64,000 nt of DNA from Escherichia phage nepoznato. The stretch lies in the sequence record NC_052658.1, one strand, 5' to 3'. Shown here one piece after another: positions 29,637-49,707 of the stretch (positions within the stretch are counted from its first letter, which is position 1; every line of letters begins with the position of its first letter). A program made the position numbers and the translations under genes. The notes below the pieces were generated by a model. That model was not told the origin of the DNA and searched no databases. It saw nothing but the letters and a program-made list of their open reading frames with translations.

Positions 29637-29668
29637 GAAAGGAGCCAAATGGCTCCTTTTCTTATTTA
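29637..29668. terminator. Bidirectional terminator between the convergent early and structural blocks
   Basis: 10-bp stem GAAAGGAGCC/GGCTCCTTT(T) with loop AAAT, T-runs on both strands; lies where the plus HNH gene and the minus fibre gene converge. Confidence 0.6.
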
Positions 29669-32334
29669 TAATTGGAAGGAATGTTGTTATAATCAGAAAG
29701 TTTTGTGCAATACCTGAATAGGTAACTATTAGCTACTCCGCCTAATGTATTTGTTAATGTTGTTCCTGTTCCTGTAAGATTTGTGCATCCACTAAAGAAA
29801 GAAGATAATGCTCCACGTTTACCACAAACAGTTAACCCTGGGTTGTCATTAAAGATCTTATTAAAATCTGTAAGTCCTAAACAACCTTGGAATGTAGCTG
29901 TTAAAGAGGTCACTTTCGTTGGAATATTATCAAACATTCCTGCTGGAACTTCTGCAAGAGAGGTGCAATCTTTAAAGGTGTAAGAATATCTTGTAACTTT
30001 TGACAGATTCTTAAATAAATCTGAAGGAATAGATGTTAAAGATGTACAACCTTCAAACGTGCTTGACATTGTTGTCATTGAAGGAAATAAAGCATCACTG
30101 AATAATCCTTCAGGGATAGCTGTCAAACTTGTGCAGCCAGAGAAGATACCGCTTATAGATGTTCCGGTGTAAGATGTGTTACTAAAACAATCAGAAGTTA
30201 TTCGTCTTAAGTTAGCACAACCTTTTAAGAATTGTGAGGCTGGGCTTGTAGAATAACTAATTCTATTACCGCCCCAAAGTTCTAAAAGACTTTGGTTTGC
30301 TTCCATAGACACTTCCACACTATTAACTACGGAAGCACTTGCAAATTCAATAGCCAGTCTGTATTCTCCTGCTGGATAACTATCCACTGTAGAGAAAGCT
30401 TTGTTTCTAAATATTACCTTACTTGAAGGAACTACAACGTCATCCACCTTAACTACAAAGTTAGCTGGTGCGACAGTACCCGATAAAGTTGGGAACGTAA
30501 TCGCCCCATCTGCCGAGTGGTTGAAATATCCGTTTAGAACCGTTAAACTACTACTCGGAGATGGAGCTAACTCCTTTCCCGCAACAGCGTTCACCGTTAA
30601 ATAAGAACTATCAGAAGCGGTAACAACACCTTGATACGTAGCTGTGCAACCAATCCTACAACCACCATCACCAACACCAGTTATTACACCAGTTGTAGGA
30701 TCTACTGTAGCAACATTAGGATCTGTAGTTGTATACTCAACAACCATACCAGGTAAGCTTGCTGCTCCTGTTGGCGTTATTTCTGCTACTATTGTTTGTG
30801 TTGTTCCTACATCCATCGCAGATAAGCTAGGGGTGTAAACGCTCAATGTTGAAGCATATCCTCTAGAGGTATCTGATAAAGTTGTTCCTTCAGCGTTTAA
30901 GGCTGTCATACCTGCATCAAAACCACCTTCTGCTTGGAAAGTCATTAAGCCAGTAGATGATATTGTCATGTTTGCAGGGGCAGAAGAAGTGTATTTAATA
31001 TTGAAAAGTTTACCTCCTTCTGGGCTAACAGAATGTGTCAACTGTTTAGTTCCACCTACAATACAAATTCCTAAAGAATCTGTAGTTAAGCTAGTTGCCA
31101 GCACATCACCCGTAATCACGGAGCTTGCTATTGGTGTGAATTTATTATAGTTTAGACCACTATTGAACAGATATGACGCTTTCCCATCTTTCCAAATACC
31201 GGAATAATACATATCTCCATTATAAACGAAAAAGGTTCCTTGATAACCTAATTGGTTAGTAACATCCATATTCAGCGTATGAACGCTTGTGAGCTTGTTT
31301 ATATCCCAGGCACCCACTCCTTCAGGTTTAACTGGTTTTCCCACTTGGAGTGGATCTCCGCTCGCAGAATCATACCCCAAACCTAAGTTTGCCGTATAGT
31401 TCTTACCAATAGCCCACAAGGAATTATTAATCCCAACGAAAAAAGAGTGGCGGCTTGGTGGAAACTTCCATGTTGAGAAACCTGCTGCAAAGGTATCCAG
31501 TTTAGTGTAGGTTGTTTCTGTATTAGACCTAACATATAAGTAGTTTACTGTACCCGTGCCGCCGGAGGTATCTCCTACAACTATTGTCTGGGAAACTGTA
31601 TTGATGTAATCTTTGACATACACTGTTTCAGTAGCGGATATTTTGGCATTGACAAAAGCTGTTGTTGTGTTATTATTACCTGCTAAACCTTTACTAGCTC
31701 CACAAACACGCAAGGTTCCCACATTGTTGACATAAGAGCATTGGTTGTAGCCTGCATCAAAAGCAACTGCTGCACTTGTTATCTGACGAGGAGTAGAAAC
31801 TTCGTTAGTAGTACTTGCACCTAAACTGCCTACTGTGTTTTGACCTGATCCATAAAGAACACCACTATTCATTAACCAGAGAGTGTTGTTATATCCTCCC
31901 TTAACCTCTTTAAGATTGGCTAAAGAGATAGTCCCTGTTATTACAGATGGAAAGCTGGTCCAAGTAGTTACACATGCATCCATACCACCTGCTGCTATAG
32001 ATCCTACCAACCCTGCTGTCAATCCTGAATATTGCCATCCCCCACTGTTAGTTTTAATAACAAAACAACGATCTGCGGTAAACACATCCGCTACTACAGT
32101 AGAAGCTAAGTGGAAATTATTGAATCGTGCACTACGAGTTCCATCTGCAATCTCACCAAAAAGGTTTGCGCCTTGAGTAAACAATCTACCATCATTAAGC
32201 AAAATTGCTAAACTGCTATTAGAATTACCAGCATTATCTGGGTAATCTAAAGTGATTACTTTTTTAACAATACCTGCTGGCAGAGGAACGACACCAGTGC
32301 TGGTCATAATAGTAAATATTGGAATTGGAAACAT
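29662..32334 (-). CDS. Tail fibre / receptor-binding protein with C-terminal BspA-type leucine-rich repeats
   Basis: 890 aa; repeated F-x-x-C-T-x-L-T-x-I/P units near the C-terminus (FSGCTSLTAIPEGLFSD, FEGCTSLTSIPSDLFKN, FKDCTSLAEVPAGMFDN, FQGCLGLTDF, FSGCTNLTG); GGAGGG SD. Confidence 0.55.
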   Translation of the reverse strand: MFPIPIFTIMTSTGVVPLPAGIVKKVITLDYPDNAGNSNSSLAILLNDGRLFTQGANLFGEIADGTRSARFNNFHLASTVVADVFTADRCFVIKTNSGGWQYSGLTAGLVGSIAAGGMDACVTTWTSFPSVITGTISLANLKEVKGGYNNTLWLMNSGVLYGSGQNTVGSLGASTTNEVSTPRQITSAAVAFDAGYNQCSYVNNVGTLRVCGASKGLAGNNNTTTAFVNAKISATETVYVKDYINTVSQTIVVGDTSGGTGTVNYLYVRSNTETTYTKLDTFAAGFSTWKFPPSRHSFFVGINNSLWAIGKNYTANLGLGYDSASGDPLQVGKPVKPEGVGAWDINKLTSVHTLNMDVTNQLGYQGTFFVYNGDMYYSGIWKDGKASYLFNSGLNYNKFTPIASSVITGDVLATSLTTDSLGICIVGGTKQLTHSVSPEGGKLFNIKYTSSAPANMTISSTGLMTFQAEGGFDAGMTALNAEGTTLSDTSRGYASTLSVYTPSLSAMDVGTTQTIVAEITPTGAASLPGMVVEYTTTDPNVATVDPTTGVITGVGDGGCRIGCTATYQGVVTASDSSYLTVNAVAGKELAPSPSSSLTVLNGYFNHSADGAITFPTLSGTVAPANFVVKVDDVVVPSSKVIFRNKAFSTVDSYPAGEYRLAIEFASASVVNSVEVSMEANQSLLELWGGNRISYSTSPASQFLKGCANLRRITSDCFSNTSYTGTSISGIFSGCTSLTAIPEGLFSDALFPSMTTMSSTFEGCTSLTSIPSDLFKNLSKVTRYSYTFKDCTSLAEVPAGMFDNIPTKVTSLTATFQGCLGLTDFNKIFNDNPGLTVCGKRGALSSFFSGCTNLTGTGTTLTNTLGGVANSYLFRYCTKLSDYNNIPSNYK

Positions 32335-32345
32335 TTAAACCCTCC

Positions 32346-32372
32346 ATAAAAAGAAAGCCCCTTTCGGGGCTT
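32346..32372 (-). terminator. Rho-independent terminator (minus strand) after the collagen-like fibre gene
   Basis: Minus-strand hairpin GAAGCCCCGAAAGGGGCTTTC followed by TTTTTAT. Confidence 0.5.
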
Positions 32373-32375
32373 CTG

Positions 32376-34400
32376 TTATCGTGTTACAACAACCATGTCC
32401 ACGATATTACCCACACCAGGATACGTTAATTGCAAAATTGTTACTGCGTTGGCAGTAGTTGCTATTTCTGTATCATTCAGTGCTCCATAAGACGCATCTA
32501 GTGTAACCGTGTGTCCCGTTGTATCTTGAATCAAATAAATCATTGCTGAAAACGCTTTAGGCTTTGTAGAGCCAGTGACACCAGGCCATGCTCCAACTGT
32601 TAAAGCATCGGTTACTGTAACAACATACATATTGGAAGTTCCAGAAGGAGTCCAAGATGCTCCAGAGTTGGCAGTAGTTGTTTCAAGTTCCATGAAACCT
32701 GCTGTAACTCTAGTTGGTGTTATAGCTTCCGTAGGATCTGATCCTGATATTTCAATCCAGTTTCCATCAGAACGACCATAAGTCAAGCCGTCTTGAGGGG
32801 CTTCTGGTATACTAGGAAGAGTTCCTATAAGTGTCCACGTAGAAGAATCTGTTTTCTTAAATACTGCTCCAGTGGTAGTATTGAAGGCGTAATCATTGAT
32901 AACACCGTCTCCTGCGACTGGATTAGTTGTTGCTACAAACCACTGTGCGCCGTCCTTACCGTTGGCCCCATCAGTACCGTTGGTTCCGTTTGTTCCAGGA
33001 TCACCCTTATCTCCTTTATCCCCTTTTTCACCTTTGTCGCCCTTAATACTTCCCATGTCAACAAAAGATGCGGAATTGGTGTCTTGATCGTAGGTATAGA
33101 TGTAAAGATTACTGGTATCCTCAGTTAAGTAGGCATCACCATAGTTATTATAAACAGGGAGAGCTTCTCCGTTTGCAACATGACCTTTAGCTGTAATAGA
33201 TCTGCCTCCCAAACTGCCTACATTGAGCCAAGTTTGGTTGTCATCAATCCACACATAAAGTTCATTTTTTATGATGTAGGCATCACCGACCTCCGCTACA
33301 GAGGGTAACTCTGAAACATCTGCCAATTCTCCGTTTACAGAAAGACCTGCACCAACTGGACCTTGGATACCTTGAACACCCTGTTCACCTTGTGGACCAG
33401 GATCTCCCTTCTCGCCCTTGTCTCCCTTTTCACCTTTTAAAGCAGCAACAAAATCTACTTCTGTCCCTTCATTACCAGCGTCCAGCCAACTTTGATATGC
33501 AGATTTCCCTTCGTCTCCATCTGTTCCATCTAGACCGTCTTTACCTGCCTCACCTTGTGGACCTTGAGGACCAACAATATTACCCATGTTGACCCAAGCT
33601 GTCCCATTAGAGACATAAAGATTACCATTAATAGAATAAGCTTGGCTTACGTTTTCAGAGTTAGGTTGTGGTAAGTTACTTGTAGAAGGCAAATCTCCAC
33701 GGTAATCAAAACCATTAGCGTTGACACCAGGTGCACCCTGTGGACCTGTAGGACCAACGTCTCCTTTATCACCTTTTATAGAGGCAAGAAAGTCATAAAC
33801 AGATCCTGTATTACCATCTGCCAACCATACCTCGTAAGCTGATTTCCCTTCTGGTCCAAGAGAAGAAATAAGTTTCCAAACAGAACCGTCCCAAGCGTAA
33901 ATCACATCACCTACGATATAACCATCCCCTGCAACGTTACCTGTAGATGGTAGTTCACTAGTGCTTGCTAATGATCCTTTAATATTAAGTTGAGCACCAG
34001 TATCCCCTTTCAAAGAAGCAAGCCATTGTGCTTCTGTTCCAACAAAACCATTATCAAGTGCGATCTGATAAGCCGATTTACCAGCTTCAGGTATTGCTTC
34101 TGACAAATCATCGATCTGTTGTTGCACTGCCGTAAACTTGGCATTGATAATTGCTATATCATCAGCAGTCCCAACACTTTGCCATGCAAGGGAAGAAATA
34201 CCACCTGTGGTGGCTGGCGTAGAGTTTGCTGGAACTACTTTAGGAAAAGTTCCTTTCCATTGGTAATAATTCCCTTCTGCCGCTAACAGCAAAACTTCAC
34301 GGGAATTACGTAATGTAAAACCTGCCTCAAAACTGCGACGTTTTCGATAAGTAGCTTCTACCAGATCGGCTATCGCACTATTAGGTCTTGTTAAATTCAT
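32376..34400 (-). CDS. Tail fibre protein with collagen-like Gly-X-Y repeats
   Basis: Runs of GEKGDKGEKGDPGPQGEQGVQGIQGPVG and GDKGEKGDKGDKGDPGTNGTNGTDGANGKDG. Confidence 0.65.
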   Translation of the reverse strand: MNLTRPNSAIADLVEATYRKRRSFEAGFTLRNSREVLLLAAEGNYYQWKGTFPKVVPANSTPATTGGISSLAWQSVGTADDIAIINAKFTAVQQQIDDLSEAIPEAGKSAYQIALDNGFVGTEAQWLASLKGDTGAQLNIKGSLASTSELPSTGNVAGDGYIVGDVIYAWDGSVWKLISSLGPEGKSAYEVWLADGNTGSVYDFLASIKGDKGDVGPTGPQGAPGVNANGFDYRGDLPSTSNLPQPNSENVSQAYSINGNLYVSNGTAWVNMGNIVGPQGPQGEAGKDGLDGTDGDEGKSAYQSWLDAGNEGTEVDFVAALKGEKGDKGEKGDPGPQGEQGVQGIQGPVGAGLSVNGELADVSELPSVAEVGDAYIIKNELYVWIDDNQTWLNVGSLGGRSITAKGHVANGEALPVYNNYGDAYLTEDTSNLYIYTYDQDTNSASFVDMGSIKGDKGEKGDKGDKGDPGTNGTNGTDGANGKDGAQWFVATTNPVAGDGVINDYAFNTTTGAVFKKTDSSTWTLIGTLPSIPEAPQDGLTYGRSDGNWIEISGSDPTEAITPTRVTAGFMELETTTANSGASWTPSGTSNMYVVTVTDALTVGAWPGVTGSTKPKAFSAMIYLIQDTTGHTVTLDASYGALNDTEIATTANAVTILQLTYPGVGNIVDMVVVTR

Positions 34401-34436
34401 TTATCTCTCCTATTATTAGACCATTCTATTGGAAGA

Positions 34437-34455
34437 AGAGGGGGAATCCCCCTCT
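34437..34455 (-). terminator. Intergenic GC-rich hairpin (possible terminator)
   Basis: AGAGGGGG-AAT-CCCCCTCT between two minus-strand fibre genes; weak U-tract. Confidence 0.3.
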
Positions 34456-34464
34456 CTATTTCCA

Positions 34465-37400
34465 TTAGGTTGTTGGCACATCTACCACTGGTGTTGGGCG
34501 AATAACCGCAGTATTACCTACAGAAACATTACTAGAATCGTTAGGTATGGTTTTGATTCTAACTCCAGCACTCGTAGGCGTTACAATTGGATCTGCAATG
34601 TCTATTTTAACTGGGTTAGTCCACGTATCATTATCTTGATAAGGTGCACGAGTGATAACTGTGTCCAAATCTGCTCCACCTACACCAGCACCAGGAATAC
34701 GGATACGTGTTCCTGCTGACAGAGGATAGTGATACAACCAAGAAGCGTTTGTTGCTGTCCCATTAGGAGTCAAGTTCTGGGTCAGGAAGGTATCTCCTGC
34801 TTGTGTAGCTCGAATACCGAAAGCTGGGATATCTGGAATGTATGCCCCACTTGTTGTTACAAGGAAGAACGTATTATCCGCTTTGACTATCATATCCCCT
34901 TTGTCAAACTCCTTCCCTGTTGGGAAATGCATCCCATCAATGTTTCGGCTAGGGTTAGGCTCTAAGTAATAAACTTTGCCAGTTGTCCCTACAATAGCTC
35001 CAATACCACCTGCGATATTGGTATACATATTAGCTTCAACATTACAGTTGACACGATGAATATCCGAGTAACGGCAACGGCTCCACTGTGGACGACCAGT
35101 AACCATCGTCTTGCCATCTGGGTAACAGTTTACGTTAACCATCTCAAGAACAGATTTTTCTCTACGGAAGAATCCATCATAAAATGTCCCTGGACCAGAT
35201 TCAGGTTGACCAACACAATCGAAGATATTACAGGTGATGTTAGACATTGAAAGCCAAGAAGCTATACCGAACAACTGCAATGCGGCGCAACGAATATTTT
35301 CAAAGCTAACTCTGTTTTCATAACCTGGCCCAGCGGAAACTCCCGCAAAAACACGCCCAGTTTTGGTGTGAATGTTACGAACAGAATAGTTAAAGCATGG
35401 ATTTGAAGGTCTACCCTGTGCCGGAACTACCGGATTACCCTCTTCGTCCAGAACTGCGTTAGTTCCCCACTCCAAATAAATCATACGGATATTACTTGCA
35501 AGTGTGCTACCGTCTGTTTTAGGCTCTCCATAAACACCATCAATCGTAAAGTCTTTACTTCCATACATTACAACTGCGCCAGTTGCCAAACCTGTCCCAA
35601 CAGATACAGTTTGGTCTGGATCGCCATGAATGTTTTCGATAGAGATATTACGACCAACTTCTACGTGGACAATCTGACGACAACGTTTTGCAAAAACGTT
35701 ACGAATTGTAATATTCTTGCAATATTGATCATCAGGAATTCCGTAACCATATGGTCCTTTACCAGCTACACCAATACCGATACCCCAGTTGGACAGAGGA
35801 ATAGGAGCGTTAGTCCCATCGATATTAGACAGGTAAATATTCTCAATCACACAACCATCATCATAATGTTTATTGATGACGTTCAGTTCTATTGCATCAC
35901 CTTGCATGTCCATGAAGGTAAGGTTACGGAAGACACCGCGTGTTACTGGTTCCCCTGTTCCTTGTTGAAGGATGCCATATAACCCGTTTTTAAAAGTACA
36001 ATTATCAATTTCAAAAGTACCTGATATTGGGTTGCCTTGGAATACCAAGCTACCAACTTGACCTGCGCGAGGAGCACCGTCCCACAAACAATCGAACATG
36101 CGCACAGCACCACCCCAATACATAACACGAGAGTTACGGAAAGTTGTGCCTTCTACTGTAGCATTTTGCACACGATAGTCACGTTGACCACGGAACACAC
36201 CCCCACGCAAAGTGATACCTTGAATATCAAAAGAGCTTGTCGTGAAAGTCATATCGCAACCGTAAGCATCGAGAATCTTGCTTTTCGAAGCTTTTGCTGC
36301 TAACAGTGCCGCCTGGAAAGCTGCTTCTGGTGTGGTATAGGTAGTTGTATTGTTAGCAAATTCGGACAAGTAGACAACATCGAATAAATCGTTGTATGTT
36401 CCACCACGAGGGGTTAACAGTCCTTCTGTATTGGTCAGAACCCATGCATTTGGACCTAATCCACCGCTTGTCTCCAATGTATCAGAGGCCAAAATACTTT
36501 TTGGTAAACTTCCAGCCCAACGATAACGACCAGCACCACGTCCAATCGTCTGATTTTTAGCTGTCAGAGTTACGTTATTACCAAAGCTTGTAGGCAAATG
36601 AACAAACTGTCCACGTTCAACAGCCAGTGCAGAAAGATCTACGGACCCCCCAGAATAAGTCATTACTCCAGAAACAGATAAGGATGTTAAAGTTCCTGTG
36701 ATGTTAGGAGGTAATGTGTAGGAAGACTGTGCTACTGGATCATACAGAGCTTTAATCCCTGTTAACGATTGACCTGCTGTTGCGTAAGCCACCTCATCAT
36801 CTAACAAACCATATTTACGAGCAATAGTTTGCAGAGGGACTTTATCCATGCTTTCTGTTAGTTCTTCCGTTTTTGTTTCTAAACTAACAAGACGGTTCTC
36901 TAGATTAGGATCTGTATCTGCTGAAGCTACGATTTTACCAATATAAGCAAAAAGCTTGTTTGGTAGTCCTGTTGCAGGATCGTGTCCCAAAGGTTCAGAT
37001 AAAATGATTTTACTATCTTCTATGCGGAAAGCTTCTCCCAGAACCTGAATAACACCATTGATTGTAACAATAGCACTATCAAAGATGTAGGGAGGACTGA
37101 TTACTGTTTCATAACCAGTTGCACCAGAATATACCCAAGGGGTGACTTCTGTTGCTAGTTGTTCTGTCTTCAGTCCCCACAATACCCAGTTGTTATCTCC
37201 TACTGGAGTCCCTTGCATAGGAATTGGGTTTACCAGCGTAGCATTAGGCGCATAGTAATAACCACTCAACACTCCGTTCTGGAAATAACGAAGTTGGTTA
37301 AAAACTGTTTCGTTTGTGCCTTGCGCCCAATCTAATGGACTTTTAAAGAAAAAGTTGTCAACAAGGGCTTTTCTCAGGGTTGGTATCAACCCTGATTCTG

Positions 37401-37518
37401 TTTCAATACTCTCTGTAGCACTTCCATTAATAACATCATGGAGTTGGTTAGACGAGAAAATAACCAGATCTACGCCCTGTTCGAGAGACGTTGCTGGATA
37501 TGTTGGGAATGTTGCCAT
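34465..37518 (-). CDS. Tailspike with right-handed parallel beta-helix (putative polysaccharide depolymerase)
   Basis: 1017 aa; repetitive beta-helix rungs (NCTFKNGLYGILQQG, VFRNLTFMDMQGDAIELNV, ITIRNVFAKRCRQIVHVEVGRNISIENIHG). Confidence 0.55.
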   Translation of the reverse strand: MATFPTYPATSLEQGVDLVIFSSNQLHDVINGSATESIETESGLIPTLRKALVDNFFFKSPLDWAQGTNETVFNQLRYFQNGVLSGYYYAPNATLVNPIPMQGTPVGDNNWVLWGLKTEQLATEVTPWVYSGATGYETVISPPYIFDSAIVTINGVIQVLGEAFRIEDSKIILSEPLGHDPATGLPNKLFAYIGKIVASADTDPNLENRLVSLETKTEELTESMDKVPLQTIARKYGLLDDEVAYATAGQSLTGIKALYDPVAQSSYTLPPNITGTLTSLSVSGVMTYSGGSVDLSALAVERGQFVHLPTSFGNNVTLTAKNQTIGRGAGRYRWAGSLPKSILASDTLETSGGLGPNAWVLTNTEGLLTPRGGTYNDLFDVVYLSEFANNTTTYTTPEAAFQAALLAAKASKSKILDAYGCDMTFTTSSFDIQGITLRGGVFRGQRDYRVQNATVEGTTFRNSRVMYWGGAVRMFDCLWDGAPRAGQVGSLVFQGNPISGTFEIDNCTFKNGLYGILQQGTGEPVTRGVFRNLTFMDMQGDAIELNVINKHYDDGCVIENIYLSNIDGTNAPIPLSNWGIGIGVAGKGPYGYGIPDDQYCKNITIRNVFAKRCRQIVHVEVGRNISIENIHGDPDQTVSVGTGLATGAVVMYGSKDFTIDGVYGEPKTDGSTLASNIRMIYLEWGTNAVLDEEGNPVVPAQGRPSNPCFNYSVRNIHTKTGRVFAGVSAGPGYENRVSFENIRCAALQLFGIASWLSMSNITCNIFDCVGQPESGPGTFYDGFFRREKSVLEMVNVNCYPDGKTMVTGRPQWSRCRYSDIHRVNCNVEANMYTNIAGGIGAIVGTTGKVYYLEPNPSRNIDGMHFPTGKEFDKGDMIVKADNTFFLVTTSGAYIPDIPAFGIRATQAGDTFLTQNLTPNGTATNASWLYHYPLSAGTRIRIPGAGVGGADLDTVITRAPYQDNDTWTNPVKIDIADPIVTPTSAGVRIKTIPNDSSNVSVGNTAVIRPTPVVDVPTT

Positions 37519-37521
37519 TAA

Positions 37522-37857
37522 TTACCCCTTATTCTGTGTACGTTTAACTATGTCATCTAGCATCATTTGGATAGTCGCATTCTTGAGGTCCATAATCTTT
37601 TCAATCTTTTGCTCAAGAGTGTTATTATTTGCCATTAATGTAGAGTTAATTTGATTTAGCATCTGGGTAAGTTCGGCTTTAGTTGCATAAGTTGATTCAA
37701 CAAAGACCAACTTCTTCTCTAGCTCTCGACTTTTCTCCTCCATTTCCTCAAGATCAGAGCCGAATTTATCCATTTTTTGTTTGAAAAAGAACCAGATGAC
37801 TCCGATTAAAGGGATAATTGCATCCTTAGCAAGTCCCCATGCTTCTTGAAATTCCAT
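37522..37857 (-). CDS. Small membrane-anchored coiled-coil protein
   Basis: N-terminal TM segment IIPLIGVIWFFF, then charged coiled coil; 111 aa. Confidence 0.4.
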   Translation of the reverse strand: MEFQEAWGLAKDAIIPLIGVIWFFFKQKMDKFGSDLEEMEEKSRELEKKLVFVESTYATKAELTQMLNQINSTLMANNNTLEQKIEKIMDLKNATIQMMLDDIVKRTQNKG

Positions 37858-38407: not shown

Positions 38408-38422
38408 TATTTATTCTCCTAC

Positions 38423-40093: not shown

Positions 40094-40095
40094 TT

Positions 40096-41583: not shown

Positions 41584-41846
41584 TAGTCATCCTCTTTGGT
41601 AGATTGTGATCTGCCCCAACGTAAATCAATAAGATTTTTCATGAGGCGAGAAGGGGTTATCATGAAAACAAAAGCCCAACCCATCCATTCAGGAATTTCT
41701 TTTTCTATTCCTAAAAAGATAAACATGCCTGTCATAACCGACATGCCTACAGCGTTCCAGACTTTCGTAGAGCTTACCCCGTTGCCGGGGTAAGTGCAGA
41801 ACATTCCGCGAATAAATTTTTTAAAACCGTTTTTCTCTTTAACCAT
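41583..41846 (-). CDS. Small membrane protein (two TM helices) embedded in the tail module
   Basis: Hydrophobic segments VMTGMFIFLGI and WMGWAFVFMITP; 87 aa. Confidence 0.4.
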   Translation of the reverse strand: MVKEKNGFKKFIRGMFCTYPGNGVSSTKVWNAVGMSVMTGMFIFLGIEKEIPEWMGWAFVFMITPSRLMKNLIDLRWGRSQSTKEDD

Positions 41847-41894: not shown

Positions 41895-44660
41895 TTATTT
41901 ACTTTCCAGGGTTGCAAGTCTTTCTTCAAGAGCTTTTAACTTTTTACGTTGATAAGCCATCTCAATAAAAAACATTTGGTCAGCGCGGATACCCCATCGC
42001 GATCCTGCTGGAATTATTTCGATAGTTTCTACAACATCTTCTACGATTGTTACTGGATTACCTTCTTCATCAATTACAACATTCCCTTCATCATCAAATA
42101 AAGGGATTTCTTTTTGTCCCGTAACAACACTATCGTACATAGCAGGGTATTCATCATAACACAGAAAAGCATACTTACAATCAGTGCTATTTTCATCCAT
42201 TAAACCATAATTAATCAGAATATCTCTTACATCTTGAGCTATAACACCAAAATGAATACGCGCAGAATCTCCTTTCTCCGCGATAGCACTCAGCCATTGG
42301 TAAGAGATTACATGAATATCTTCCCACGCTTTCAGTAAAATATCTTCAATCTCTGTAGGTTTAGTTTTTAATGTTCCATCTGAAGTATTAATGGTTCCTG
42401 TAGATGCGTACACTTCTGACCATCTATTAGATGCACCACCTAATGCAACTTGTCCATCTAAATACGGCATGAAATTATTTTGGGTATATGCTCCTCCTGG
42501 GGCATATAAAACTGCTCTGTTTGGATACGTATGGTTTGAACCATATAGTTGTAATAGCGATCCATCAGTAACGTAAGGAGTTTCTCCTCCACATAAGATT
42601 AGTCGCTGTTCAGAAGGATTTTTTATTGGGACATTTTTTGCAACAACCCCATAATCACCATCTAATTTTATTCTAACGGCAGATTGTTGTGTCCCATCAT
42701 GCTCAAGACCAGTAACTGTTAAAGAGTGTACTTGCACATCATTATCAAAAGTTACAGGGGCTGAGACATGCCTTACCCCATCCGTACCCATAGATACAGG
42801 CAATGTACGGTTTGGCGTAGCTCCATATTTGAAATCACGTGATACAAAATCATGTTCGGTAATCTTTAGTCTATAGCTATATAAATCGGCTGGATGACCA
42901 TCATGCTTGTACCATAATTTTTTACTATTATCCCCAATAGACCAAGGAGATAAGAAATCTTCGCCTCCAAAGATATAATATAACCAACCATCTTTAACAC
43001 ATACCGAACCAACACCACATGCAGAATTAACAATATGCCCTTGATACATCTGATCAGTGATATTAAACCATTGAACATCGGATAAAGATGCAGGCCATGC
43101 AGATACATTAATCTTGCACATAAACGTTCGAGGATACGTACCTTTATATCTATTATCTAGTTCTTCTCCTTCCCATTCTCCAAATGAACGTTCTGTACCA
43201 AAGATATAAAGGTAGTTACCAACTTTTGCAAATGGTAGGTTTGTATGATGAACGTTGTTAGGAAATCTTAAGTAATTCCAGTTTTCTCCAAGGTCAGCAC
43301 TCATTGCTAATGTAGAACCAGCAGCAGAAGTTGAAGTACCCCTAGTAGTTAAATATAAAATTCCATCATAATATTTAATGCAGGGTTCTGCTGCATTGTC
43401 AGCATATTCTTGACTAATTGTTCTACGAGTAAAAGAACTTGGGTCAGAGTAAGCATTATTGAAATACAAAATACCTAATCTTCTTGGGGAAACATCACCA
43501 TTGTGATAACCCACAGCAAAAGTGTAATTATCATCATCTATAACTGTAAAACTATGGGTTTCTGTAACACATAAGTCTGCATTAGTAGAATAGGCAACAT
43601 CTGGTAATTCTGTAATTTCCCAAGGGCTATCCCAGAAACGTGTTCCAAAATGCCAAGTAGTTCCTGTATTATCTATATTAGATGTGGCAGCACTCGCTAA
43701 TGTAACAGTAAATGTATCCTTGTTAATTACAGATGCAACAGTCATATTTCCAGATACACCAGTTGCACCTGAATTGGAAAAGTTAACAGCATCTCCAACT
43801 TTAAGACCATGTTTTTCTAAAACAATCGTCGCCGTAGTAGACCCAGAACTAATTGTTATACCTCCAGTCGGCCTTCTATAATAAGGCATTGGACGTGACC
43901 AAAGTTCTGCTTTCTTCAATCGCATGTTAGATAAGTAACGGGTTTCGATGACTGCATATAGGCGATTACCACATACGCCCATACTCATACAATGATAGTT
44001 AACTTTGTTTGCTGAAGAGGCATTATAATCAGGATGAATTGGAGTTAACCATTCTGGCATAGACCAAGTTTGTCCATCATCTCCTGATTTAACCCACGCT
44101 ACATGGAGGTTTTGTACACCATGACGTTCGCCAGCCATAAATGGTGCATATATGACATTGTCATAAACAAACGTCTTATCTTGCGTCCAAGCATTGTAAA
44201 ATGGTGTATCCGTAATCTTTGTCAGATTTCCATCGAAGAAACCTTCAGATACATAAGTAAGGGGTTGTCCAACAATACGCTCGTAAACAAAAGCAGCGTT
44301 TTTAAACTTGCTTATATCTGGTAGTGTTGTAACCTTGAAAGTGAGATTACGCCCATCAATAATCCATCCATCAGGCATAGCAGCAAGAAGCTGTGTTATG
44401 GCATTAGTATCGTCTGTTACTCCGTCACCTACTGCTCCCCATCCTCTAGGATCACCTTCATCTCTCCAGCGTGACATTTGAAGTTCTGGGTACTTGGTAG
44501 CTCCAGAAATATCTTTTAACTGGGTGGCTAAAACCACCCCAGTGTCAGTAAGAAAGTTGGAAACTGTGCTTTTAACAGTCTTATCAGGTTGGTCTAAAAC
44601 CAGGTAATCTGAACCATTAACTTTTGATGTTTCGGGTAAATTAGTAATTGTAGTTGACAT
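41895..44660 (-). CDS. Tailspike with C-terminal intramolecular chaperone (peptidase S74-like) domain
   Basis: C-terminal region ...TSDGTLKTKPTEIEDILLKAWEDIHVISYQWLSAIAEKGDSARIHFGVIAQDV is typical of self-cleaving endosialidase-type chaperone domains; 921 aa. Confidence 0.6.
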   Translation of the reverse strand: MSTTITNLPETSKVNGSDYLVLDQPDKTVKSTVSNFLTDTGVVLATQLKDISGATKYPELQMSRWRDEGDPRGWGAVGDGVTDDTNAITQLLAAMPDGWIIDGRNLTFKVTTLPDISKFKNAAFVYERIVGQPLTYVSEGFFDGNLTKITDTPFYNAWTQDKTFVYDNVIYAPFMAGERHGVQNLHVAWVKSGDDGQTWSMPEWLTPIHPDYNASSANKVNYHCMSMGVCGNRLYAVIETRYLSNMRLKKAELWSRPMPYYRRPTGGITISSGSTTATIVLEKHGLKVGDAVNFSNSGATGVSGNMTVASVINKDTFTVTLASAATSNIDNTGTTWHFGTRFWDSPWEITELPDVAYSTNADLCVTETHSFTVIDDDNYTFAVGYHNGDVSPRRLGILYFNNAYSDPSSFTRRTISQEYADNAAEPCIKYYDGILYLTTRGTSTSAAGSTLAMSADLGENWNYLRFPNNVHHTNLPFAKVGNYLYIFGTERSFGEWEGEELDNRYKGTYPRTFMCKINVSAWPASLSDVQWFNITDQMYQGHIVNSACGVGSVCVKDGWLYYIFGGEDFLSPWSIGDNSKKLWYKHDGHPADLYSYRLKITEHDFVSRDFKYGATPNRTLPVSMGTDGVRHVSAPVTFDNDVQVHSLTVTGLEHDGTQQSAVRIKLDGDYGVVAKNVPIKNPSEQRLILCGGETPYVTDGSLLQLYGSNHTYPNRAVLYAPGGAYTQNNFMPYLDGQVALGGASNRWSEVYASTGTINTSDGTLKTKPTEIEDILLKAWEDIHVISYQWLSAIAEKGDSARIHFGVIAQDVRDILINYGLMDENSTDCKYAFLCYDEYPAMYDSVVTGQKEIPLFDDEGNVVIDEEGNPVTIVEDVVETIEIIPAGSRWGIRADQMFFIEMAYQRKKLKALEERLATLESK

Positions 44661-44668
44661 TTTTACTC

Positions 44669-46822
44669 CTATATATAAAATTTTTGTGTTGTTACTAAAT
44701 CTTCTCCAGATTTAGTGGCTAATGTAATTCCACTTATGGTGGCAATCTCAACATTTACCTGTTTAAGAGTGATATCCTGTAAATAAACGTTCAAAGGCAC
44801 GTTACCCATATAGAAAACTTGGGATTGAGAATTAACTACCGTGATAGAATCATGCATTATTTGAGGATAGGCCCATATATATTGTGTAAGTCCGTCAAAC
44901 TTATTGGCGTTCAACACTATGTTACCTATAATCATCTTCCAAAGATATGTGCGGTAGTTTGATTTAGGATCAAAGCCATACAAAGGTGCAAGAGTAGCAT
45001 CTGGAACAAAACCTGCAAGATAATGTATCTTATCATAACTAAAACCTAATTGTTCATTAGGTATTGTGATAGCGTCAAAAGATTTTTCCATCTTACCTTC
45101 CAACAACCAGTCATAACATTCTGAACAATAAAAGTCGAAGTTTTCTGGGATATAATAATCTTTAGGGAAGTTAACAAACTCCATCATACCGTTACCTAAA
45201 ATGGATGGCACAAATGGTAATAATGTAACTTTAGCTCCAGGATAGGCTAATCTAGTATCTGTTGCAAACTTTGCAACTCTTAATCCTAGTTTACGAGACA
45301 AAAATGCATAGTATTCGTCAAACGGCGTTCCTGTTTTATAATTATCTATTGTTCCTACATCTTGTGCAAATAAACCTGTTTCTGTGTTGAATGCTAGTTT
45401 AGTAGTGTAATCGTATATACAAGGCATTTTACTCGCTGTATTATACCACCACCAAGGCTCACCAATTTGAATGACAACTGGAATATTATTAGCTTGCGAA
45501 ATAGATGCTATTTTATTAATAACATTTTGCAAATATTTCATACCTTCGTCAATAGTTGGAGACAACACATAACTAGGAGGCTCATACCCTGTTGCTGCAA
45601 GAGCATCGTTCCAATCATGCTGGACCCATTCGACAGGACAAACTGTGCTCATCAACTCAAAACTTAAAGAGTTCATTATTGTGTAACCCTTCTCGTTCGC
45701 TACAGAATGGAAACTATTTAGCCAAGCTTCTGTAGCTGGATTCAGGAAGACAGATCTATTTAAAGCCCAAGATGTTCCGTTCCATGAGAACTCATAATAG
45801 TGAGACATTCCATTGTAATGGTTAATCATTCCACGATAACCTAGTGCATATGTATTATAAATAACTCTCTCTGGAGTCAGGTTATACATATCGTCATAAG
45901 ATGTGCACATGCGAATATCATGTTCAGGCTGGACAAGGTTACTGACTTTCATCATACTATAACCAGAAGTAGGTTCAAGAAGAGTGAAAGTAAACCAAGC
46001 CTCTTGACTATCAATAGGCACAATCTCTTCTATTTCTTCATACCTTGCTGTAATCAAAGAGAAGAAAATATTATCTACAGCACTCATGTCCAAAGGAATA
46101 TCATTATTAGGACCAGAGAAGATATTACCAAAATCTAATTTGATTGTAGCTGTTTTACCATCTTCTGAAATATCTGAAGCATAAAATCCTAAACTAACAT
46201 AGTGGACACTTTTATCCAAGAGAGTTACAGTCAAAGTTGGCACCAAAGGTTCTTCTTTAAAACCTGGCATGTTTTGACTAATTTCCATTTTAAACCAAAG
46301 TTTCTCTGAACTTAAATCTGTGTGGGGTAAATACCCAACACCTTTATGGTCATATTTGTCAACTGTGCTCCAGATAACCCCTGCCAAACCTGCTGTTGTT
46401 CTGTTTACAAATCTTGCAGTAAAAGAGTCTCCATGAGATACAATAGAACAACTTTCCGTTGCTTGAGAATCTATTGTCCAATACATAGGAGAGAACATTT
46501 TAACGTCTTTTGTAGTCCAAGTTATTGGAGTAGTATTTTCTTGGATAGTAGTTATAATACAATTGATGGTCGTTTCAACCATCATGTTATTTTGACTAAT
46601 CCCTGAAACTTGGAGGGAGAAGTTAAGATCTATTGAGTTCTTTGGTCGTTCAAATACTTCAACCACAATGGTAGCAGAATCAGCATCATCAGGGAACACA
46701 AGTGTTCCCGATTTTGCTATATAATCTCTACCAGCGACTGCTGTTCCGTCAACAGTCGTGTAGTTAAATGAACTCGCATTTACTCTCTTGTCTCGCGTGA
46801 CAGTAAATATAGCTTGTTTCAT
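44669..46822 (-). CDS. Large tail-associated protein (putative tailspike / receptor-binding protein)
   Basis: 717 aa in the tail fibre cluster; no motif identified. Confidence 0.4.
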   Translation of the reverse strand: MKQAIFTVTRDKRVNASSFNYTTVDGTAVAGRDYIAKSGTLVFPDDADSATIVVEVFERPKNSIDLNFSLQVSGISQNNMMVETTINCIITTIQENTTPITWTTKDVKMFSPMYWTIDSQATESCSIVSHGDSFTARFVNRTTAGLAGVIWSTVDKYDHKGVGYLPHTDLSSEKLWFKMEISQNMPGFKEEPLVPTLTVTLLDKSVHYVSLGFYASDISEDGKTATIKLDFGNIFSGPNNDIPLDMSAVDNIFFSLITARYEEIEEIVPIDSQEAWFTFTLLEPTSGYSMMKVSNLVQPEHDIRMCTSYDDMYNLTPERVIYNTYALGYRGMINHYNGMSHYYEFSWNGTSWALNRSVFLNPATEAWLNSFHSVANEKGYTIMNSLSFELMSTVCPVEWVQHDWNDALAATGYEPPSYVLSPTIDEGMKYLQNVINKIASISQANNIPVVIQIGEPWWWYNTASKMPCIYDYTTKLAFNTETGLFAQDVGTIDNYKTGTPFDEYYAFLSRKLGLRVAKFATDTRLAYPGAKVTLLPFVPSILGNGMMEFVNFPKDYYIPENFDFYCSECYDWLLEGKMEKSFDAITIPNEQLGFSYDKIHYLAGFVPDATLAPLYGFDPKSNYRTYLWKMIIGNIVLNANKFDGLTQYIWAYPQIMHDSITVVNSQSQVFYMGNVPLNVYLQDITLKQVNVEIATISGITLATKSGEDLVTTQKFYI

Positions 46823-46830
46823 TTTACCCC

Positions 46831-49707
46831 TTACTCGGTAACGTCCACACTAATGTTTGCCATTGTCAAAACAGTAAGTGCAGGAATATTGCTCGAATCC
46901 AAAACAGGTAATGCATTTTGGGGATTAAGTTTTTTGTATAAAGCATACAACCCAAAACCACGTAACAACTCTCCAGCGTGGAAGCCAAAGAAGACTCCGT
47001 TATCACTATCTGGTCTAGGAGCGGCACTCCAACAACCATTCATGACGTGATTAGGACCAAGAACAATATAGTTTTCCTGAATAAGTTCAAAACAGCGGTC
47101 TGCTACTATTTTAATGTTAGGAATTTCTGAATCATATCCAGCCATCCCCATTATAGCACATCCCGCCATAAAGAGCGCAGACATGTGACTTGTAAAGTCA
47201 TCTACAGGCGCAGCCACTTCTCCATTGGGATAAAATATTGTTGGTGTTCTTCCTTCGTTGTTATCTTGGAACCATTTCAGATAGTTGATCCAGTTTTTAC
47301 AAACTGTTAAAAGTTTTTCAGGAACTTCGGCTCCTCGTTTTTTCAGTTCGTATACCGTATGACACGCACAGAAGAATGCTCGTGCTTCATAACCATCCCA
47401 AGCTTTATCGTTCCAATGATACATTGTGAACTCATTTTTGTTTCCATATTTATGAGCATCCCAACGATCCCAAACATAAGCTTGTGCCATTGGCCCAGGC
47501 ATTACAGGGGCAAACTTATTATAAAACCACATTTGTGAATCATATAAAAAGTCTATACTGTTGTTCATACGAACCCAGTCAATATCTCTCCCTTTAAAAC
47601 AATATAAGGATGGGTATTGATAACCTGGGTAAGGAATACCACGCCAACCGTCATATAATGCTGTATTAGGATCACTAATATTGGAAAATGGAATGATTCC
47701 TGGAGTATAATTCAAACTGTCAAGTTTGTAGTCCAGTATTGTACAATCTCCAAGTTTTGCTGTATAAGGATTTTCAGATGAAACTGTAACCCTGAAATAC
47801 ATTGTGTAATCATCACCAGTGGCTGAAGAATACAAAGATGGGATATCGTTAACGCAATAAAAATCGATTGCCCCTGTCAAGCCATTTGCAGGTTCAGAAT
47901 CCAATGCAATATTGATCTGATCAACAGCAGTCAGGTTTATTGACGAAGGTTTTGCCTCTGTGTCTTCGTGATTAGGTTGCCAAGTACTTAATTTGAAATC
48001 GGCAGGACTTAAAGCTTTAGTAACCCATGCAGAATTTGTTTTTTCTAACATGGCCCACCATCTCCAACCTGCGGAATCCGTAATAGTGATGTTAAAATCA
48101 TCTGTGTATGAACGATACGTAATAGATTTTAAATTGGCTGTTTTAGTTGGTGTTAACCAAAACCCAACAGTAAAACCACCATCTGAATCCATATTAGCAG
48201 AAACTATCTGATCACTATTTGTCCCAGCAATACCAGTTGCATATTTATATTGTATCACAGTATTGCTTCCCCAGTCAACAATAATTCTGGGTTCAGCAAT
48301 AATATATACACCACCTCCAGGAGGTTCGGTGCGCATAAAACTAGATAAAGGTATATCCATCTTAGTCATATTAGCTGCACCAAGAGGTAAGCCACAACGA
48401 TATGTCACTGTGTCTGTTTCACTCTTAGTTTTGCTTAATTCTAGCTCTGGACGGAAAAGAACACCTTCCCCTGCATCATCTACACCTTGAAACTCAATAC
48501 GCAGTTTTGAATTCTGATCTACTCTGAACCAAACTGCCTGTTGTTCTAGAGTTGTTTGTGCTGAAACATCTTGGCGAATTACTGTGTATCCTAATTCGTC
48601 ACGAGAATATTTAGGTATTGCTGTAGATGGGTATGAGTAATCATACGAGATACCATCTGTAAAAGGAATTATTGCTGTCGTAGATCTACGGAAGAATTTA
48701 TCAAACATATCGATGTTTGAGTAGTCTTGACACAACAATAAAGAAGATTGCCAGCAAAGCCAGTATTTTCTCTCTCCTGTGATCTGATACATCAAGTAGT
48801 TTGCATCACACCACCACGTTTCAGCATCGGAAGCATTATCTTGATAACCTAACTCTACCGGAACGTTTACAGGACGGTTATGCCACATCTCATTACGTTT
48901 AAGTAGATACCCACCGTGTTCTACAGGGTTGCATGTAGCGTAGTTGAATTTATAGTCACCGTTCACAGAAGCGTTTTTAAGTTGCACTGTTCCATATTCT
49001 GCAAAGCTATGACCAGTAGATAAAATGTTACCATCCCAATCAACTTTACGTCCTAGACGGTCTATAATCCATTCAACGTCCCACTGATCTCCATATTCTT
49101 TCCAGTTGGTTGAACCATCTGGGTTAGTTGCATACACTGTTGCGTTAACAGAGTTCCAACCAAGATTACCATTGAAAGCAAACCAAGCTTTATCTAAGTA
49201 TTCTCCCCAGTGTGGCGCACCTTTAGGAATAACAGTCCTTCCGTTAATCCAAGTCATCATGCTACCTTTGAACCCACCGTGCGTAGGATACCCATCATCT
49301 GTGAGAGGGTAATGTGCTAAACGTGGTTCTTTACCATTGATGATCCAGTTGGGACGATATTTAGCCGGAGGATCAGGAATAGGTTGGCCCCCGAAGAAGT
49401 GATCTATATAGGCTTGCCAATACTTCTCGGCAGATTCAAGATATTTTTTATCCCCTGTAGCCAAATATGCATAAGCAAAACCAGTGATAAGCACAGATTG
49501 ACCTTCGGTAGTAGCGTCACCGTTTGGTTGCCCTTCCTGCGCTGTCCAGTTAATAAAGTGTCTGTTGTTCGCCAATACGTTTTGTGGGTTGATAATGTAA
49601 TGCTGAACCGTAGGATCTATGGTAAGCCCAGTATTTCTTTCCAAAAACTGAACCAACCCTTCAATCAACTGAAACGTGTTGTCAATATTGTGCTTAACTC
49701 TTGACAT
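46831..49707 (-). CDS. Large tail-associated protein (putative glycan-degrading enzyme)
   Basis: 958 aa; Trp/Tyr-rich C-terminal half suggestive of a carbohydrate-active fold; position in the tail cluster. Confidence 0.4.
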   Translation of the reverse strand: MSRVKHNIDNTFQLIEGLVQFLERNTGLTIDPTVQHYIINPQNVLANNRHFINWTAQEGQPNGDATTEGQSVLITGFAYAYLATGDKKYLESAEKYWQAYIDHFFGGQPIPDPPAKYRPNWIINGKEPRLAHYPLTDDGYPTHGGFKGSMMTWINGRTVIPKGAPHWGEYLDKAWFAFNGNLGWNSVNATVYATNPDGSTNWKEYGDQWDVEWIIDRLGRKVDWDGNILSTGHSFAEYGTVQLKNASVNGDYKFNYATCNPVEHGGYLLKRNEMWHNRPVNVPVELGYQDNASDAETWWCDANYLMYQITGERKYWLCWQSSLLLCQDYSNIDMFDKFFRRSTTAIIPFTDGISYDYSYPSTAIPKYSRDELGYTVIRQDVSAQTTLEQQAVWFRVDQNSKLRIEFQGVDDAGEGVLFRPELELSKTKSETDTVTYRCGLPLGAANMTKMDIPLSSFMRTEPPGGGVYIIAEPRIIVDWGSNTVIQYKYATGIAGTNSDQIVSANMDSDGGFTVGFWLTPTKTANLKSITYRSYTDDFNITITDSAGWRWWAMLEKTNSAWVTKALSPADFKLSTWQPNHEDTEAKPSSINLTAVDQINIALDSEPANGLTGAIDFYCVNDIPSLYSSATGDDYTMYFRVTVSSENPYTAKLGDCTILDYKLDSLNYTPGIIPFSNISDPNTALYDGWRGIPYPGYQYPSLYCFKGRDIDWVRMNNSIDFLYDSQMWFYNKFAPVMPGPMAQAYVWDRWDAHKYGNKNEFTMYHWNDKAWDGYEARAFFCACHTVYELKKRGAEVPEKLLTVCKNWINYLKWFQDNNEGRTPTIFYPNGEVAAPVDDFTSHMSALFMAGCAIMGMAGYDSEIPNIKIVADRCFELIQENYIVLGPNHVMNGCWSAAPRPDSDNGVFFGFHAGELLRGFGLYALYKKLNPQNALPVLDSSNIPALTVLTMANISVDVTE

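Follow-up and report, generated by a model that had tools for sequence, protein, structure and literature searches.

The fibre genes of Escherichia phage nepoznato lie in a block that very probably forms the distal portion of a late structural operon in a Phapecoctavirus myophage, encoding the baseplate periphery and host-adsorption organelle and orthologous to that of phage phi92. The window, by which we mean the whole 64,000-nucleotide stretch analyzed (NC_052658.1), belongs to Phapecoctavirus (Stephanstirmvirinae), with 97.6% DNA identity to ESCO5 over 96% of the length of the region. By tblastn, 16 window proteins matched phi92 (Justusliebigvirus) in the same order at 47–97% identity. Gene for gene, the block shows synteny with phi92 gp137–gp152, most genes having 72–97% protein identity; gene order corresponds one for one from the hub to gp152, and both have the wedge proteins, the short fibre and its chaperone, gp140, gp141, and gp142. 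All eight ORFs of the original prediction were recovered with exactly the same limits, all on the minus strand, and ORFs this long, crowded onto one strand, are not attributable to chance. The region is real but ordinary, being of an already known kind and a near-twin of the blocks of the Phapecoctavirus phages ESCO5 and phAPEC8, to which its DNA is 96–98% identical and most of its proteins, including the endosialidase and the 958-, 717-, and 1017-aa proteins, are 98–100% identical. The region can confidently be annotated as a phi92-type adsorption module of Phapecoctavirus, with the following features (evidence in brackets):

29662–32334, minus strand: 890-aa modular protein, 'TfpM1' in the literature, a candidate adhesin (Pfam, AF2, Foldseek, repeat pattern)
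29665–30237, minus strand: seven BspA/DUF285-like leucine-rich repeats of the 890-aa protein, residues 700–890
30265–30543, minus strand: beta-sandwich of the 890-aa protein, residues 598–690
30580–31107, minus strand: two Big_2 Ig domains of the 890-aa protein, residues 410–585 (Pfam Big_2)
31135–32334, minus strand: seven-bladed RCC1-like beta-propeller of the 890-aa protein, residues 1–400
32376–34400, minus strand: 674-aa collagen-like tail fibre, phi92 gp151 homologue, 59% identity (Pfam, tblastn)
32379–32729, minus strand: C-terminal knob of the 674-aa fibre, residues 558–674 (match to phiTE tail fibre 9cuy_g)
32943–33773, minus strand: four G-X-Y tracts of the 674-aa fibre, within residues 210–486
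34170–34367, minus strand: Tail_spike_N anchor of the 674-aa fibre, residues 12–77 (Pfam)
34465–37518, minus strand: 1017-aa tailspike related to the phi92 gp150 colanidase (PDB, Pfam, phrog_6117, tblastn)
34519–36243, minus strand: catalytic body of the 1017-aa spike, residues 426–1000, 33% identical to gp150
36322–36843, minus strand: CBA120/G7C-type tailspike N-terminal module of the 1017-aa spike, residues 226–399, without a phi92 counterpart
36874–37518, minus strand: anchor of the 1017-aa spike, residues 1–215, 75% identical to gp150
37522–37857, minus strand: 111-aa small protein, phi92 gp149 homologue (PHROG, tblastn)
37868–38407, minus strand: 179-aa fibre assembly chaperone for the short fibre, phi92 gp148 homologue (Caudo_TAP, phrog_136)
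38423–39454, minus strand: 343-aa short tail fibre, phi92 gp147 'fibre III' homologue, 72% identity (PHROG, tblastn)
39464–41583, minus strand: baseplate wedge proteins of 209 and 495 aa, phi92 gp146 and gp145 homologues (Pfam, tblastn)
41583–41846, minus strand: 87-aa small membrane protein, phi92 gp144 homologue (PHROG, tblastn)
41895–44660, minus strand: 921-aa endosialidase tailspike, predicted K1/K92 polysialic acid depolymerase (Pfam, PDB, phi92 homology)
41898–42383, minus strand: self-cleaving Peptidase_S74 chaperone of the 921-aa spike, residues 760–921
42384–44435, minus strand: catalytic trimer body of the 921-aa spike, residues 76–759
44436–44660, minus strand: adaptor of the 921-aa spike, residues 1–75
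44669–46822, minus strand: 717-aa protein, phi92 gp142 homologue, not a fibre (Pfam, PDB 9lc0)
44849–45928, minus strand: TIM barrel of the 717-aa protein, residues 299–658 (Pfam)
45947–46504, minus strand: NCTSP_N domain of the 717-aa protein, residues 107–292 (Pfam)
46577–46813, minus strand: Calx-beta domain of the 717-aa protein, residues 4–82 (Pfam)
46831–49707, minus strand: 958-aa protein, 'TfpL', phi92 gp141 homologue, 83% identity
49707–50180, minus strand: 157-aa small fibre-like protein, phi92 gp140 homologue, 83% identity (phrog_9017 and other 'tail fiber' families)

Only four of the seven large proteins (674, 1017, 343, and 921 aa) are believable as trimeric fibres or spikes. The other three (890, 717, and 958 aa) fall outside the classical trimeric types, with a propeller, a TIM barrel, and a glycosidase barrel as their folds, and the AF2 models of the 890- and 958-aa proteins, which are confident, are globular or a string of domains as monomers. 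Every one of the seven carried a binding or enzyme-type domain by Pfam, Foldseek, or structure matches (0 of 7 without one), contrary to the refuting case set out with the original prediction. The broad or multi-receptor host range that had been proposed is consistent with orthology to the phi92 apparatus and, by analogy, with the host range of ESCO5, which infects 32 of 46 E. coli strains representing several O-serogroups, with the K1 capsule present or absent. That orthology supports the earlier reading as a whole, except that an apparatus described as exceptionally large, although its large ORFs are real, is so only in a relative sense, since the same gene set is standard across the whole subfamily Stephanstirmvirinae. 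The idea itself is already known for this phage group, as Schwarzer et al. reportedly published the multivalent adsorption apparatus of phi92, with its "Swiss army knife" idea, in 2012 (J Virol 86:10384). The window would share with phi92 the concept of several co-displayed fibres and spikes.

Several candidate depolymerases had been suggested, and two are indeed predicted by homology, with activity documented only for their phi92 homologues, an endosialidase and a colanidase that have both been biochemically characterised. In the 921-aa spike all five endosialidase Pfam domains were far above threshold (Peptidase_S74 at residues 760–819), PDB matches reached E=0 for 4hiz and E=2e-70 for 3gw6, and identity to phi92 gp143 (EndoN92) was 96.6%, with 28 substitutions. 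Its layout is that of GH58, i.e. an N-terminal extension, a beta-propeller with inserted beta-barrel, a stalk, and a C-terminal Peptidase_S74 domain, and this propeller, barrel, stalk, and S74 architecture is also that of K1F endoNF, K1E, and K1-5; E-values for the K1-type structures PDB 1v0e and 3gvl were about 1e-237. Compared with the K1-type enzymes, the window spike has another N-terminal adaptor (residues 1–75), which attaches it to a myophage baseplate, and is one among several receptor-binding proteins, dispensable on K1-negative hosts according to ESCO5 data. The self-cleaving chaperone domain foreseen for this tailspike was borne out, in that the phi92 cleavage site between T756 and S757, as given by the mature peptide boundaries of phi92, aligns with T759 and S760 of the window protein and the flanks are identical. 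Phi92 gp143 cleaves alpha-2,8 / alpha-2,9 polysialic acid, and by homology to this characterised protein the 921-aa spike would trim the K1/K92 polysialic acid capsule, having trimerised with the aid of its C-terminal S74 domain, which would then be self-excised between T759 and S760. Knowing that a module carries a K1/K92 endosialidase is of use in predicting which hosts therapeutic phages against APEC and ExPEC can infect.

The second candidate, originally described as a beta-helix tailspike, is supported as such by its homology to gp150: the 1017-aa protein matches crystallised gp150 (PDB 6e0v) at E=1.4e-79 over residues 426–1000 and phrog_6117 at E=1e-282, with Pfam Tail_spike_N at residues 302–361 and a Pfam Beta_helix match that is sub-threshold. 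By homology it is a relative of the phi92 colanidase, but with no more than 33% identity to gp150 in the catalytic body it may act on a substrate other than colanic acid. Besides this divergent body it differs from its phi92 counterpart in the extra CBA120-type N-terminal module. The N-termini of CBA120 TSP1, TSP3, and TSP4 and PDB 4qnl ('Tail fiber protein') match the Tail_spike_N modules of both the 674- and the 1017-aa proteins, whereas the branched complexes of Ackermannviridae CBA120 TSP1–4 and of G7C gp63.1/gp66 differ from the window in the baseplate, and XD-domain hub proteins of the TSP2/TSP4 type are absent from the window. The collagen-like fibre was found as predicted, with Pfam Collagen at 47.9 bits against a cutoff of 27.2 and 35 G-X-Y triplets in tracts of 6, 8, 10, and 11; it is among the proteins that set the window apart from phi92, as is the gp148-type chaperone at 47% identity. 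A knob shared by this fibre and the 157-aa protein had been suggested by common PHROG matches and in the phi92 paper. BLASTP between the two proteins gave no significant similarity, leaving a shared C-terminal knob unconfirmed at the sequence level.

The predicted coiled-coil fibre with its assembly chaperone (37868–39454) also held. The 343-aa fibre has an N-terminal wedge-docking joint, its N-terminus matching the phiTE short tail fibre 9cuy_c, a heptad-repeat coiled coil at residues 228–290, and a tip that varies after residue 283, and directly downstream lies the gene for the 179-aa chaperone (Pfam Caudo_TAP 28.2 bits, cutoff 22.1), whose alleles co-vary with those of the fibre tip. By homology the fibre, folded by this chaperone, would dock beneath the gp145-type wedge protein. 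The 209- and 495-aa wedge proteins (Pfam DUF2612 and Baseplate_J; 87% and 80% identity to phi92) are the fibre attachment platform, a role taken from the 2026 phi92 cryo-EM work, in which three co-displayed fibre sets were described on the gp145 wedge and gp147 was identified as the trigger fibre, fibre III (PMC13450770). In phi92 it is the rearrangement of this short fibre that sets off contraction of the sheath. The 674-aa fibre and the 890-aa protein may, by way of C-terminal tips that can be exchanged, widen the range of glycans or proteins recognised.

The two further large proteins at 44669–49707 exist as ORFs of 717 and 958 aa, but are globular enzyme-fold proteins rather than fibres. 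In the former, Pfam NCTSP_N scored 59.3 and TIM-barrel_NCTSP 268.4 bits (cutoffs 27), and PDB matches were to 9lc0_M (E=6.5e-30) and 9lc0_I (E=1.8e-12); the TIM barrel matched phage N4 gp64, of the non-contractile tail sheath heterodimer gp64/gp65, at the first of these values, and the NCTSP_N domain matched gp65, the receptor-binding protein of N4. In contrast to N4, both domain types occur in a single chain with Calx-beta ahead of them, and this chain lacks most of the ten domains of gp65; the window phage is contractile-tailed and, since as a myophage it already has its own true sheath, an N4-like sheath role is improbable for this protein. The 958-aa protein was modelled as a complete (alpha/alpha)6-barrel glycosidase fold with inserted beta-sandwich domains, sharing the six-hairpin barrel of glycoside hydrolases such as GH8, GH76, GH88, GH105, and similar families, with about 10% identity to its structural matches and no Pfam or PDB sequence match. 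Both the 958- and the 717-aa protein are strongly conserved in phages whose hosts differ widely, as receptor-specific proteins seldom are.

It could be that valencies are fewer than genes, i.e. that only the 674-, 1017-, 343-, and 921-aa proteins bind the host while the 958- and 717-aa proteins are catalytically inert scaffolds of the baseplate periphery that keep glycosidase folds. We regard this as rather less probable than not. In its favour, the 958-aa protein has full-length homologues at 30–55% identity in phages of Vibrio, Pseudomonas, Aeromonas, Erwinia, Salmonella, and E. coli, as is typical of structural parts rather than receptor-specific tips, and Phapecoctavirus isolates with different spikes share it at 99% identity. 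Among solved structures, the nearest relatives of the 717-aa protein build the structural sheath of N4, but one of them, gp65, is itself the receptor-binding protein, and many acidic and aromatic residues of the 958-aa protein, Asp/Glu included (D64, D172, D294, E296, D336, E388, D544, D750, and E913), are invariant in 63 diverse homologues, a pattern that would fit a pocket for sugar binding or catalysis. Moreover, a siphophage-like prophage and an SU10-like podophage each have a homologue of the 958-aa protein, indicating a mobile accessory module; on this distribution a core part of the myophage baseplate was rejected for the 958-aa protein.

The reading we prefer is of a globular enzyme-fold accessory pair, which would probably serve as the scaffold arm for the interchangeable tailspike encoded by the adjoining gene. 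A more specific and quite tentative proposal, which we think unlikely as it stands, is that the 958- and 717-aa proteins form a heterocomplex of two enzyme folds that accounts for unassigned density in the phi92-type baseplate, corresponding to the L-shaped arm with its interchangeable tailspike (fibre I), to fibre II, or to both, and constituting a mobile 'spike-carrier' module in myo-, sipho-, and podophages. This draws on the single fused chain that the two proteins form in one SU10-like podophage (P0092), on the position of the tailspike slot directly downstream of their genes, on a natural spike deletion that extends into the 717-aa protein and removes its last ~34 residues, and on a text search of the 2026 cryo-EM paper on phi92, in which only fibre-shaped candidates are named and gp141 and gp142 do not occur (PMC13450770). 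From that absence, the phi92 counterparts of the two proteins may form its unassigned fibre densities. In the same work the endosialidase at the tip of the L-shaped arm was inferred, its density not being resolved (PMC13450770), and the place of the 958- and 717-aa proteins in the virion bears on the identity of both fibre II and the fibre I arm of phi92.

The 890-aa protein had been called a leucine-rich repeat (LRR)-tipped fibre, and the tip stands while the fibre does not. Seven F-x-[G/D]-C-x-x-L repeats at a spacing of 27–31 residues occupy residues 702–873, the AF2 model gives one short strand per repeat at pLDDT ~90, homologues have DUF285 (PF03382) C-termini, and LRR matches in PDB were weak (best E=7.8e-6). 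Pfam DUF285 was sub-threshold on the tip (14.8 bits vs 25, E=0.024) and the full protein had no LRR family match in Pfam at E≤0.01, so the LRR call rests on repeat pattern, model, and homologues. The propeller was recognised by Pfam RCC1 (24.3 bits, cutoff 21.7) and by a Foldseek match to UVR8/RCC1/HERC2 (E=4e-13, TM 0.69), with the WD40_RLD whole-domain model under its cutoff (41.9 vs 150). Phi92 holds only the Big_2 part, as gp152 by tblastn, and the window protein differs in the propeller and LRR tip added around this Ig core. As modelled by AF2 (pLDDT 84.6, pTM 0.54), the protein is a monomeric string of domains and not a classical fibre, without a recognisable baseplate-anchoring domain or trimeric anchor, and it is perhaps off the baseplate altogether.

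Extending this, the protein might lie outside the tail adsorption apparatus, as a decoration of head, neck, or tail tube of the Ig 'mucus/glycan adherence' type or as a non-virion protein, a possibility that we consider doubtful. It would agree with the monomeric model and missing trimeric anchor, with matches of the Big_2 part to PHROGs labelled 'structural protein with Ig domain' (head) and 'major tail protein', and with the 'lambda protein V like fold' noted in the record of gp152. The gene is parted from the fibre genes by a terminator-like hairpin, yet it is the last of the same-strand fibre block, with a strong bidirectional terminator at its end, and the protein is labelled 'tail protein' in related records and PHROGs, by annotation only. 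Further, its C-terminal ~240–300 residues are swapped among close relatives while the remainder is conserved, the phAPEC8 counterpart diverging past residue 653, and such exchange is a signature of host-recognition tips, in keeping with the candidate adhesin that we favour.

Swapping was also apparent at the endosialidase slot, which in tuntematon, ukendt, and WPEC1 is filled by a spike of 452 or 804 aa or is empty, with the first 54 residues kept in ukendt. The short-fibre tip of the window (after residue 283) and its chaperone are of the tuntematon/ukendt/WPEC1 allele and not that of ESCO5/phAPEC8, and no record in the phage collection pairs that allele with the endosialidase, the best coverage being 88%. 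Some relatives, such as tuntematon, have small fragmentary ORFs in the tailspike slot, but no support was found for regarding the large gene set as an assembly or annotation artefact or as decaying pseudogene remnants, which is extremely improbable given that all ORFs in the block are intact and full-length and are 97–100% identical to genes of dozens of independently isolated, viable phages, and that the AF2 models are confident.

A tRNA search within the window found none, and a promoter scan of the window was uninformative (61 sites vs 54.6 expected). The 111-aa protein has an N-terminal transmembrane helix followed by a coiled coil; the 'lipoprotein' label that it bears in related records was rejected, as the protein is without cysteine. 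The 157-aa protein, though just beyond the range of the original prediction, probably belongs to the same apparatus, and its phi92 homologue gp140 is listed among the fibre candidates (PMC13450770).

The adsorption block of Escherichia phage nepoznato (29662-49707) is of a kind already known from phi92, where it goes by the name of "multivalent adsorption apparatus" and has also been called a "nanosized Swiss army knife"; published work has carried the concept over to Phapecoctavirus, Vequintavirinae, and PVP-SE1-like phages. The original prediction of a multi-receptor apparatus is supported by near-identical characterised phages, and all of its reading frames were present with exact coordinates, every one on the minus strand. 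A megablast search with 29662-49707 aligned 96% of the query to ESCO5, with 97.6% identity, and returned approximately 60 further Phapecoctavirus records at 95–99% identity; the taxonomy is Stephanstirmvirinae, Phapecoctavirus. When 16 window proteins were compared with the phi92 genome by tblastn, a one-for-one syntenic match extended from gp137 (hub) to gp152, including the following.

46831-49707, minus strand: 958-aa protein, phi92 gp141, 83% identity
44669-46822, minus strand: 717-aa protein, phi92 gp142, 79% identity
41895-44660, minus strand: 921-aa protein, phi92 gp143 (EndoN92), 96.6% identity
495-aa and 209-aa wedge proteins: phi92 gp145 and gp146, 80% and 87% identity
38423-39454, minus strand: 343-aa protein, phi92 gp147, 72% identity
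37868-38407, minus strand: 179-aa chaperone, phi92 gp148, 47% identity
34465-37518, minus strand: 1017-aa protein, phi92 gp150, 75% identity in the first 215 residues and 33% in the body
32376-34400, minus strand: 674-aa protein, phi92 gp151, 59% identity
29662-32334, minus strand: 890-aa protein, phi92 gp152, 66% identity in the Ig core (residues 411-584)

Of the seven large proteins, only four can credibly be read as trimeric fibres or spikes; modular or enzyme-fold architectures characterise the remaining three. Among the four, the 921-aa protein was correctly described as a tailspike with a self-cleaving chaperone domain: it has all five endosialidase Pfam domains, Peptidase_S74 among them, matches PDB 4hiz, the crystal structure of the phi92 endosialidase (E=0), as well as 3gw6, the chaperone-domain structure of K1F, and keeps the annotated phi92 maturation site T756|S757 as T759|S760. 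Homology thus refines the label to a predicted K1/K92 polysialic acid depolymerase. The 1017-aa protein is a homologue of phi92 gp150, whose crystal structure (6e0v) it hits with E=1.4e-79, and differs from gp150 in carrying an inserted module.

36322-36843, minus strand: residues 226-399 of the 1017-aa protein, module of tailspike N-terminal type

This module, of the CBA120/G7C type, has matches in PDB 4qnl, an entry named "Tail fiber protein" by its depositors, and in the N-terminal domains of CBA120 TSP1/3/4; it is found in the Phapecoctavirus colanidase-like spike but not in gp150, and in Ackermannviridae such modules link spikes into branched complexes. The neighbouring 674-aa fibre likewise begins with a Tail_spike_N domain, followed by four collagen tracts totaling 35 G-X-Y triplets and a C-terminal knob resembling a phiTE tail fibre. 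The 343-aa protein has a 60-residue heptad coiled coil and a Caudo_TAP chaperone gene (Pfam) directly after its own, and its N-terminal joint matches the wedge-docking short tail fibre of phiTE.

The 890-aa protein, predicted as an LRR-tipped fibre, is not a classical fibre. Pfam detected RCC1 and Big_2, and the AF2 model (pLDDT 84.6) starts with a seven-bladed propeller, of RCC1/UVR8 type by Foldseek, and continues through two Ig domains and a beta-sandwich to a domain of C-terminal repeats. The LRR tip is plausible, given seven F-x-[G/D]-C-x-x-L repeats spaced roughly 28 residues apart, weak LRR matches in PDB, and DUF285 (BspA-like) tips on homologues, although the DUF285/LRR Pfam score of the window's own protein was below threshold. 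The 717-aa protein is made up of a Calx-beta, an NCTSP_N, and a TIM-barrel_NCTSP domain (Pfam) and matches N4 gp64 and gp65 in PDB 9lc0; in N4 these make the non-contractile sheath, and gp65 is the receptor-binding protein. The 958-aa family is kept full-length in 519 phage records, spanning rV5-like phages, Rosemountvirus, jumbo phages, and phages of Vibrio, Pseudomonas, Aeromonas, and Erwinia. Two homologues come from other tail types.

L010 6691-11364: P0092, 1557 aa, adjoining the adaptor gene of a SU10-like podophage contig (SU10_MCP, SU10_adaptor genes)
L008 10001-12823: P0026, 940 aa, 53% identity, in a siphophage-like element

P0092, one of several longer homologues, fuses a 958-like part to a 717-like part (NCTSP_N and TIM barrel), the latter 52% identical to the 717-aa protein over its residues 108-675. 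P0026, in E. coli and Enterobacter genomes, is flanked by tail-tube-like and tape-measure-sized genes and lies upstream of a lambda J-type tail tip gene, indicating that the family is not confined to contractile-tailed phages. We infer that the 958- and 717-aa proteins work as a pair. In the searched text of the 2026 cryo-EM study of phi92 (PMC13450770), gp141 and gp142 go unmentioned; only fibre-shaped AlphaFold models were screened, and fibre II and the fibre I arm were left unassigned. These two globular enzyme-fold proteins may therefore make up that density.

According to the same study (PMC13450770), three fibre sets are displayed together on the gp145 wedge, density of low resolution led the authors to infer that the endosialidase is the distal tip of an L-shaped fibre, and gp147, orthologue of the 343-aa protein, is fibre III, whose movement and rearrangement trigger contraction. 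The endosialidase of a close homologue breaks down polysialic acid capsule, phi92 gp150 cleaves colanic acid, and ECA has been proposed as a primary receptor. Strains with and without K1 are infected by ESCO5, so the endosialidase is an access tool rather than the essential receptor binder. Further specificities would come from the exchangeable tips of the collagen fibre and of the 890-aa protein, with the 958- and 717-aa proteins presumably operating together.

Local tblastn against ESCO5, phAPEC8, tuntematon, ukendt, WPEC1, and phi92 picked out three hot spots of exchange: the slot of the endosialidase, the 343-aa tip with its chaperone, and the 890-aa C-terminus. In tuntematon the slot is occupied by a 452-aa spike plus small ORFs, and in ukendt by an 804-aa spike that shares only its first 54 residues with the endosialidase; in WPEC1 it is empty of any tailspike gene, and the deletion also shortens the 717-aa protein at its end by ~34 residues.

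L007 13421-15737: WPEC1, with a 687-aa homologue matching residues 1-683 only of the 717-aa protein

The short-fibre tip, beyond residue 283, and its chaperone vary as a unit, and the phAPEC8 counterpart of the 890-aa protein diverges after residue 653, other homologues having a different tip or none. Within the genus, the 958-aa, 1017-aa, and wedge proteins are 98–100% identical. The window has the tuntematon/ukendt rather than the ESCO5/phAPEC8 short-fibre allele (37868-39454) and an endosialidase (41895-44660) of ESCO5/phAPEC8 type; no phage-collection record joins the two in one stretch (best coverage 88%), so that the phage is a new, recombinant mosaic of known alleles.

The block lies distally in a long structural operon whose genes share one strand, with tape measure, tube initiator, plug, hub, central spike, and sheath initiator genes upstream. 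GC skew changes sign at ~29.6 kb, where the block meets converging plus-strand replication genes. Several smaller features accompany the large genes.

49707-50180, minus strand: 157-aa fibre-like protein, phi92 gp140 homologue, just beyond the range first proposed
37522-37857, minus strand: 111-aa ORF between the chaperone and colanidase-like genes
34437-34457: G+C-rich terminator-like hairpin between the 1017-aa and 674-aa genes
32354-32373, minus strand: G+C-rich terminator-like hairpin between the 674-aa and 890-aa genes
29638-29659: strong, bidirectional, G+C-rich terminator-like hairpin 3′ of the 890-aa gene, at the structural operon/replication gene junction

The 111-aa ORF reads as an N-terminal transmembrane helix and then a coiled coil; the "lipoprotein" label in related RefSeq records and PHROGs is not supported, since the protein has no cysteine and hence no lipobox. 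A suggested C-terminal likeness of the 157-aa protein to the 674-aa fibre was unconfirmed by BLASTP; the protein is probably part of the same apparatus. The first two hairpins separate the last three large genes and the third follows them, so that expression of the 890-aa gene may differ in level through read-through.
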